From IMG/VR virus record IMGVR_UViG_2529293240_000022: a DNA stretch of 43,127 bases; one strand, given 5' to 3'. Positions 16,609 through 18,094 of this stretch are shown piece after piece. The DNA is from a virus. Its lineage: Duplodnaviria > Heunggongvirae > Uroviricota > Caudoviricetes. Below the pieces are notes generated by a model. The model was not told the DNA's origin and did no database searches. It saw nothing but the letters and a program-made list of their open reading frames with translations. The position numbers were made by a program, and so were the translations under genes. Position 1 is the stretch's first letter. Each line of letters begins with the position of its first letter.

Positions 16609-16719
16609 AAAGTGAGCCAGTCAAATGGAAGGTATCGTTAAACTCACCGGTAGTGTCAGTGGGTCGTCTGAGACGCCTGCATGAGTTATCAGAGCCATCA
16701 GTACTTAATGGATTTGCCC

Positions 16720-17625
16720 CTATATTTCCAGACATCTGTTATCACTTAACCCATTACAAGCCCGCTGCCGCAGATATTCCCGTGGCGAGCGATAACCCAG
16801 CGCACTATGCGGATGCCATTCGTTATAATGCTCGAACGCCTCTGCAAGGTTCTTTGCTGCCGTTAACCCGTCTGGTTTGGGCATGATACTGATGTAGTCA
16901 CGCTTTATCGTTTTCACGAAGCTCTCTGCTATTCCGTTACTCTCCGGACTCCGCACCGCCGTGTTCTTCGGTTCAAGTCCCAACATCCGGGCGAACTGGC
17001 GTGTTTCATTAGCCCGGTAGCATGAACCATTATCCGTCAGCCACTCCACTGGAGACGACGGAAGATCGTTGCCGAAGCGGCGTTCCACCGCTCCCAGCAT
17101 GACGTCCTGTACTGTTTCACTGTTGAAGCCGCCGGTAGTCACCGCCCAGTGCAGTGCCTCACGATCACAGCAGTCCAGCGCGAACGTGACACGCAGTCTC
17201 TCTCCGTTATCACAGCAGAACTCGAACCCGTCAGAGCACCATCGCTGATTGCTTTCTTTCACGGCCACTCTGCCTGTATGTGCCCGTTTCGATGGCGGTA
17301 CAGCAGGTTTTCGCTCAAGCAACAGCGCATTCTGGCGCATGATCCGGTAAACACGTTTGGCATTGATCGCAGGCATACCATCAAGTTCTGCCTGTCTGCG
17401 AAGCAGCGCCCATACCCGACGATAACCATACGTGGGCAGCTCTCCGATAACATGGTGTATACGGAGAAGCACATCCGTATCATCAGTGTGACGACTGCGG
17501 CGGCCATCCATCCAGTCATCGGTTCGTCTGAGAATGACGTGCAACTGCGCACGCGACACCCGGAGACAACGGCTGACTAAGCTTACTCCCCATCCCCGGG
17601 CAATAAGGGCGCGTGCGCTATCCAC
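16720..17625 (-). CDS. insD: IS2 transposase InsD (OrfB)
   Basis: 301-aa translation [13 protein letters not shown]... Confidence 0.95.
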
Positions 17626-17948
17626 TTTTTTGCCCGTCCATATTCAACGGCTTCTTTGAGGAGTTCATTTTCCATCGTTTTCTTGCCGAGCAGGCGCTGG
17701 AGTTCTTTAATCTGCTTCATGGCGGCAGCAAGTTCAGAGGCAGGAACAACCTGTTCTCCGGCGGCCACAGCAGTAAGACTTCCTTCCTGGTATTGCTTAC
17801 GCCAGAGAAATAACTGGCTGGCTGCTACACCATGTTGCCGGGCAACGAGGGAGACCGTCATCCCCGGTTCAAAGCTCTGCTGAACAATTGCGATCTTTTC
17901 CTGTGTGGTACGCCGTCTGCGTTTCTCCGGCCCTAAGACATCAATCAT
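17583..17948 (-). CDS. insC: IS2 InsC (OrfA), start at MIDVLGPEK
   Basis: translation matches IS2 InsC from memory. Confidence 0.9.
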
Positions 17949-18094
17949 CTGTTCTCCAATGACTAGTCTAAAAACTAGTATTAAGACTATCACTTAAATA
18001 AGTGATACTGGTTGTCTGGAGATTCAGGGGGCCAGTCTACTTAACTGGTGGCTTTTTTTATTGTTGTCAGCTTCCGGATAACGGGAGACGGGGT

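Follow-up and report, generated by a model that had tools for sequence, protein, structure and literature searches.

A lambda-like E. coli prophage carries an intact copy of IS2 in the spacer between its nanS-p-type esterase gene and the holin gene S, where the element divides a terminator-like hairpin. Taken as a whole, with its inferred steps included, we consider it reasonably probable that a recent transposition in a single strain placed this intact IS2 in the apex of the last intrinsic terminator before S. The effect of the insertion on the prophage is probably modest.

The insertion lies in the late region of a lambda-like prophage

The window (the whole 43,127-nt stretch of DNA that was analysed) is a lambda-like E. 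coli prophage without stx. Its early part carries, in order, an S24-type repressor gene, a CII-like gene, tandem Ash-Rha modules and a DUF968 gene, and then Q. The Q antiterminator gene, which belongs to a Pfam family that constitutes the Q21 family (PMC7171158), defines the start of the late operon. From there to the lysis genes the order is Q, a candidate tR', a small ORF, another hairpin, an N6/N4 methylase gene, three tRNA genes, STnc100, nanS-p, the hairpin split by IS2, and holin S (Table 1). The genes beyond Rz encode the Nu1/gpA terminase, a lambda-type portal, gpJ and a tail fibre. We located only a candidate tR' in the window and did not locate pR'.

Table 1. Positions of late-region and IS2 features in the window
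Feature	Position	Strand	Details
Q antiterminator, Q21 family	11957-12358	+	Pfam Phage_antitermQ PF06530, E = 1.7e-52
Terminator-like hairpin, candidate tR'	12420-12440	+	Terminator scan
nanS-p-type sialate O-acetylesterase	14755-16608	+	617 aa; Pfam SASA, DUF1737, DUF6645
Left half of split terminator	16691-16708	+	5' arm AGAGCCATCAGT 16691-16702, loop ACTTA 16703-16707, first base of 3' arm
IS2 IRR	16709-16749		41 bp, imperfect terminal repeat
IS2 orfB	16720-17625	minus	301 aa; rve (DDE) and rve_3 domains
IS2 orfA	17583-17948	minus	121 aa; HTH_Tnp_1 domain
IS2 A6G -1 frameshift site	17625-17631	minus	Joins the overlapping orfA and orfB
IS2 IRL	17998-18039		42 bp, imperfect terminal repeat
New IRL/arm hairpin	18031-18049	+	6 bp: IS2 IRL tip GCCAGT with old 3' arm ACTGGT
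Right half of split terminator	18040-18059	+	CTTAA 18040-18044, remaining 3' arm CTGGTGGCTTT, seven T 18053-18059
Holin S, P21-type class II	18095-18310	+	Dual start (MYQM...)
DUF1327	18315-18659		After holin S
Lysozyme	18710-19243		After DUF1327
Rz	19542-20009		Followed by terminase and other late genes

The last gene preceding the lysis cassette is nanS-p, whose homologues in RefSeq and phage records are named 'SASA family carbohydrate esterase' or 'yjhS 9-O-acetyl-N-acetylneuraminic acid deacetylase'. Expression of nanS-p rises by 1-2.4 logs with mitomycin C (PMC10462455), as would fit control by Q. Without IS2, nanS-p and S are separated by 150 nt of non-coding spacer. The surroundings of the element are as first described, with nanS-p upstream and the holin gene downstream, and IS2 stands between Q and the genes for lysis and morphogenesis. 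Upstream of the hairpin that IS2 splits, the late strand has at least five others that are terminator-like, an arrangement that fits an operon needing antitermination; late genes are transcribed via antitermination (PMC7547250).

Full-length domain matches were obtained for every late gene examined. The left 16.7 kb of the window shows only 94% identity over 80% of its length to prophages of O104:H4. Because the prophage ends lie outside the window, the prophage may be defective for other reasons.

Several other features of the prophage were noted. At 5791-7380 there are two tandem copies of the Ash-Rha regulatory module, repeating every 869 bp and 75-88% identical to each other. Rfam detects in both an isrK-like sRNA together with a C4 antisense RNA (5837-5913/5938-6025 in one copy, 6706-6782/6807-6894 in the other), all of them within long ORFs at 5477-6628 and 6625-7497. 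The STnc100 sRNA (Rfam, 139 bits) occupies 14342-14532, between the three phage tRNA genes and nanS-p; its 3' end is a terminator-like hairpin (14502-14521), with a convergent one on the minus strand (14561-14540). Downstream of the tail-fibre gene, a match to the Rfam IS009 RNA (225 bits, 42886-43084) falls within an ORF that starts at 42543. A 445-aa ATG ORF on the minus strand (28825-30162), antisense to three tail-gene ORFs (28732-30372), is probably spurious.

The inserted element is an intact IS2

IS2 occupies positions 16709-18039 (1331 bp), is structurally intact and has its transposase on the minus strand. It begins with TGGATTTGCC... at 16709 (in longer form TGGATTTGCCCC) and finishes with ...GGCCAGTCTA at 18039 (GGGGGCCAGTCTA). 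Identical ends are found in three further copies with unrelated flanks (loci L001-L003), and these shared end bases fix the boundaries of the element independently of the window site. The imperfect terminal inverted repeats, of 41 and 42 bp, open with TGGATTTGCC... and TAGACTGGCC...; a length of about 1331 bp, imperfect repeats of 41 and 42 bp and end sequences of this kind have been described for IS2 (PMC3299598). The element is the only IS2 copy in the window and differs at 5 nt from a RefSeq copy labelled 'IS3-like element IS2 family transposase' (99.6% identity). Its intact ORFs and ends suggest that it is transposition-competent. The identity, boundaries and opposite-strand orientation that the initial annotation had assigned to the element are confirmed.

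The pentanucleotide CTTAA abuts both ends of IS2, at 16704-16708 and 18040-18044, so that the 5-bp duplication originally reported is indeed present on either side. The chance odds for a 5-nt match flanking the element are 1/1024, and 5 bp is the length of IS2 duplications. The repeat visible in the sequence is 7 bp (TACTTAA) because the TA at the end of IS2 is matched by a TA before CTTAA in the target; the true target duplication is 5 bp, as is typical of IS2. At other loci, 68 of 92 distinct pairs of IS2 flanks carry a 5-bp duplication.

IS-free relatives carry the reconstructed site

Removal of IS2 together with one CTTAA gives the empty site ...AGAGCCATCAGTACTTAACTGGTGGCTTTTTTTATTG..., or in wider context ...ATCAGAGCCATCAGTACTTAACTGGTGGCTTTTTTTATTG.... 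This reconstructed site occurs verbatim in E. coli AR_0372, in Stx2-converting phage 86 and in five NCBI assemblies. IS-free copies of the prophage were found by looking up the exact 617-aa nanS-p protein. In the five NCBI assemblies the same prophage is present without the element at 99.95-99.97% identity over 8.9-9.9 kb, and the match is unbroken across the junction; the strains of GCA_051797565.1 and GCA_021218365.1 are examples of IS-free carriers. Comparison with IS-free relatives was the check to which the initial annotation had submitted its claim of a split terminator, and the claim survives, since these relatives carry exactly the reconstructed hairpin.

The junction between nanS-p and the holin gene is uninterrupted in 1297 of 5426 complete E. 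coli genomes, and a filled-site search detected IS2 at the window position in 0 of the 5426. Exact scans of IMG/VR and of JGI metagenome contigs likewise returned no exact IS2 junction. As this junction is missing from all of the collections searched, the insertion appears to be recent and, so far, private to the source strain. The best 'full-length' match to the filled site, H41, was rejected: its IS2 lies elsewhere, between ydfR and the lysozyme gene.

IS2 splits a conserved terminator-like hairpin

The minimum-energy fold of the empty site is a 12-bp stem (AGAGCCAUCAGU / ACUGGUGGCUUU) closed by a 5-nt loop, ACUUA. The hairpin has a folding energy of -17.0 kcal/mol (z = -4.9), which none of 200 shuffled sequences equalled, and it is followed by seven U that in part overlap the stem. 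It is thus a GC-rich stem-loop directly before a T tract on the transcribed strand, as in an intrinsic terminator. A terminator scan flags it in the IS-free locus and no longer does so in the window, where neither half-site folds better than chance. The duplicated CTTAA spans nucleotides 2-5 of the loop and the first base of the 3' arm, which places the insertion at the apex of the hairpin. The initial annotation was therefore right that IS2 splits a hairpin, but the stem, which it gave as 8 bp, is really 12 bp.

We also considered whether the IRL tip rebuilds a terminator with the right arm of the old one. The scan flags this structure, but it was rejected as a functional terminator because its energy, -6.9 kcal/mol (z = -0.29), is equalled or bettered by 70 of 200 shuffles.

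Conservation of the hairpin was assessed across 85 loci, made up of 80 IMG/VR loci that encode the same P21-type holin together with loci from annotated phages and genomes. Over the 110 nt preceding S, these loci yield 26 different variants, which stand behind at least three different upstream genes. All 26 have a hairpin of 11-13 bp with an energy of -15 to -22 kcal/mol and the same spacing to S, and in 25 of them T is present at 5 or more of the 8 nt after the stem. In a 16-variant alignment, 96% of cells are standard-paired and 5 of 11 pairs are changed on both sides; the covariation score was reached by 0 of 500 shuffles, and in a control in which partner columns were slid by 1-3 positions, pairing drops to 30-70%. 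A homologous hairpin, GCCGTCAGTG-GGTGA-CACTGGCGGC-TTTTTT, precedes the pinholin gene in phages 434 and H-19B, and the phage 434 record (OL657226, 45673-45709) annotates it as a terminator. No Rfam family matches the hairpin in the window, and a literature search returned no experimental mapping, Term-seq or in vitro data on this pre-holin terminator.

The reading of the hairpin as a conserved terminator-like structure is thus supported, with its putative function resting on structure, T tract, position and covariation. The comparative data (conservation, covariation and the 434 annotation) back the original interpretation of the split sequence as a terminator.

Late transcription probably passes through the element

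A transcript coming from nanS-p enters IS2 via IRR and runs antisense to the transposase genes. The + strand of IS2 contains 392 C and 316 G and has stop codons in all frames. The C/G ratio exceeds 1 in 81% of 78-nt windows on this strand, compared with 12% on the other. Because RNA of this composition is preferred by Rho, unmodified transcription should still stop before the holin gene.

We propose the following sequence of events. The intact hairpin would stop transcription that has not been modified by Q short of the holin gene, acting as a fail-safe in lysogens, and Q-modified polymerase would ignore it. The insertion would abolish this hairpin and substitute 1.3 kb of untranslated, C-rich RNA, which would recruit Rho and so keep unmodified transcripts blocked before the holin gene. 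After induction, polymerase modified by the Q21-family protein would read through IS2, with expression of the lysis and morphogenesis genes maintained, if perhaps lowered. Transcripts unmodified by Q are thus probably still kept from the lysis genes. Leak from pR' is one candidate for the transcription that the terminator would ordinarily stop. A promoter scan of the window found no nanS-p promoter; prophage accessory genes typically lie between a promoter and a terminator of their own (PMC3594210).

In polymerase modified by Q21, Q is topologically locked on the enzyme, which does not respond to terminators and stays processive for tens of thousands of nucleotides (bioRxiv 10.1101/651190); strong polarity on the late genes is therefore not expected. 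Antitermination by the Q21 family probably reads through IS2. The weakest step of this argument is the expectation, by analogy with lambda, that Q21-modified polymerase resists Rho inside the 1.3-kb insert. Lambda Q-modified polymerase is expected to resist Rho in untranslated RNA. The 1336 extra bp would lengthen a genome of lambda size by about 3%, an increase that packaging usually tolerates.

We would give a smaller but appreciable chance to the alternative that IS2 is strongly polar even on Q-modified transcription, such that the late genes are uncoupled from pR' and the prophage is crippled, a form of domestication that may benefit the host. Classical work found IS2 to be strongly polar, and the untranslated, C-rich RNA made through the window copy would be a good substrate for Rho. 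IS2 is also present beside or inside the lysis cassettes of other prophages: just upstream of essD (L002 and L003), between ydfR and the lysozyme gene (L001), and within a DUF1327 gene (L248). However, these four cases are a biased sample that is unusable for a claim of enrichment, because the searches were seeded on IS2 plus a lysis-gene (holin) flank, and the locking of Q21-family Q on a highly processive polymerase argues against polarity of this strength. The intact late genes are silent on decay, since intactness is what would be expected after a recent event. Given the untranslated, C-rich RNA made across IS2, the polarity that the initial annotation had suggested is plausible for ordinary transcripts, but a strong effect on Q-modified late transcription does not follow.

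The consequences of the insertion would be different again if the hairpin were not a terminator but an RNA stability or processing element, belonging either to the 3' end of the upstream gene or to the 5' leader of S; the chief effect of IS2 would in that case be on mRNA decay. We regard this as unlikely. The T tract is interrupted in some variants (for example CTTGTTGT) and the hairpin accompanies the S leader regardless of the upstream gene. Against this, the run of T after the stem is retained in all but one of the variants, the hairpin here combines a GC-rich 12-bp stem with seven T, the scan calls it terminator-like, and the curators of 434 annotate its homologue as a terminator. Since a terminator would stabilize the upstream mRNA as well, the one role does not preclude the other.

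The position of the insertion is best read as a coincidence

A second, independent IS2 is present in the same spacer, 45 bp upstream, in two loci (L228, 1087-2417, and L234, 1087-2417; IMG/VR UViG 2850756110_000002 and 2859827302_000005, respectively). Its duplication, GTGGG, corresponds to window positions 16659-16663 and lies outside any hairpin, and the terminator downstream of it is intact. The orientation of this IS2 is opposite to that of the window copy, so that its transposase is co-directional with the late genes. The window insertion, the L228 and L234 insertions 45 bp away and those upstream of essD in L002 and L003 could be taken as a pattern in which the pre-holin spacer is a recurrent landing site for IS2, whose presence would swap an intrinsic terminator for a Rho-dependent block, weaken late-gene expression and be a repeatable first step towards a locked lysis cassette and a domesticated prophage. 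We consider it quite improbable that this whole chain holds.

We used a survey of IS2 insertion sites to assess target choice. From 160 loci encoding IS2 OrfB, drawn from species-representative genomes and IMG/VR, we kept 66 distinct sites at which both ends were located, the 5-bp duplication was intact and the empty site could be rebuilt; the controls were 8027 positions from the flanks of the same 66 sites. An apex hairpin of at least 6 bp is present at 7.6% of the IS2 sites and 3.8% of the controls (binomial p = 0.11), and none of the 66 has an apex stem of 8 bp or longer. Mean folding energies are -6.75 kcal/mol for IS2 sites and -7.04 kcal/mol for controls (p = 0.91). The target logo of the 66 sites holds less than 0.3 bit per position.

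Because the 66 sites show no enrichment of hairpins, the apex location looks coincidental, and it is best read as a chance hit in a short, tolerated non-coding spacer. The statement in the initial annotation that IS2 had inserted exactly into the loop implied targeting, and no such preference emerges from these sites.

Directed insertion, whether by structure-specific targeting of the apex or by capture of an IRL-like target (GCCAGT... compared with GCCATCAGT...), strikes us as very improbable. The position does coincide exactly with the apex of a 12-bp palindrome, and the IRL tip is able to pair with the 3' arm. Apex stems of at least 10 bp occur at only 0.2% of control positions, making the window site an outlier. 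However, the independent IS2 sites lack significant apex enrichment and equal the controls in folding energy, the new IRL/arm hairpin is at chance level, and the neighbouring IS2 of L228 and L234 is not in a hairpin. Moreover, the cue that has been proposed for IS2 is proximity to intrinsically curved DNA rather than hairpins (PMC3299598).

Two side observations came from these loci. In IS orientation, the duplications at the 66 sites have a weak symmetric bias, with T scarce at position 1 (3/66) and A scarce at position 5 (6/66); the window duplication in this orientation is TTAAG, with the disfavoured T at position 1. Four contigs of 1.0-1.5 kb (L096, L134, L140 and L151) are almost wholly IS2, with OrfB identities of 82-100%. 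Their assemblies are labelled Lamprocystis, Paenisporosarcina and Brevibacterium, and the contigs look like E. coli or cloning-host contamination.

No IS2 promoter facing the holin gene was found

It had also been suggested that IS2 might create outward-reading promoters, but for a promoter directed towards the holin gene we find no support. The known outward -35 of IS2 sits in IRR (Jaurin and Normark 1983, as cited in PMC9330008), and in the window IRR faces the 3' end of nanS-p. A promoter scan detected no sigma-70-like site on the + strand at 17000-18100. That an IS2 promoter drives the holin and late genes without Q is accordingly a reading we all but discount: IS2 can form fusion promoters (PMC9330008), but here the outward -35 points at nanS-p, the flanking -10 is poor, the + strand lacks a candidate site, and constitutive holin expression would probably be lethal. 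A fusion promoter running from IRR into the antisense strand of nanS-p was itself considered and rejected, the -10 candidates matching at only 2-3 of 6 positions.

Relation to known insertions and significance

The case described here is one more insertion allele, ordinary in kind, and nothing about it departs from known biology. It has little significance beyond the source strain. It does provide a natural pair: the same prophage, at 99.97% identity, either carrying IS2 in its pre-holin terminator or lacking it. The pair is suited to asking whether Q21-family antitermination traverses an untranslated IS and what the role of the conserved terminator before P21-type holins is. The hairpin before S, being conserved and covarying, deserves annotation in lambdoid prophages.

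The window copy shares its length, terminal repeats, orfA/A6G/orfB organization and 5-bp duplication with IS2 as known from E. coli and Shigella (IS3 family, IS2 group). Nothing structural differs, and the insertion site alone is new. Insertions of IS629/IS1203 and ISEc8 are known in the Q-S region of Stx2a phages (PMC10462455). These are likewise insertion sequences, mostly of the IS3 family, in the accessory region between Q and the holin gene of lambdoid prophages that bear nanS-p (PMC10462455). Unlike those cases, the window has IS2, the insertion is between nanS-p and S in the loop of a terminator, and the prophage is stx-free.

The hairpin of phages 434 and H-19B stands in the same place before a P21-type holin gene and, compared with the window, shows a compensatory change (A-U to G-C). 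It is intact and lies about 370 nt from the esterase stop codon, whereas the hairpin in the window is split by IS2.

Among the IS3 family's other members, IS1397 and ISKpn1 target palindromes, namely the loops of REP sequences. The window IS2 resembles them in outcome only, in that it lies in the loop of a palindrome, whereas IS2 has no such preference across the 66 sites. In the classical polar insertions of IS2 in gal and lambda, the element lies between a promoter and distal genes, and Rho-dependent polarity would be expected. The window insertion differs from these in that the operon is read by Q-antiterminated polymerase and the site into which IS2 inserted is itself a terminator.
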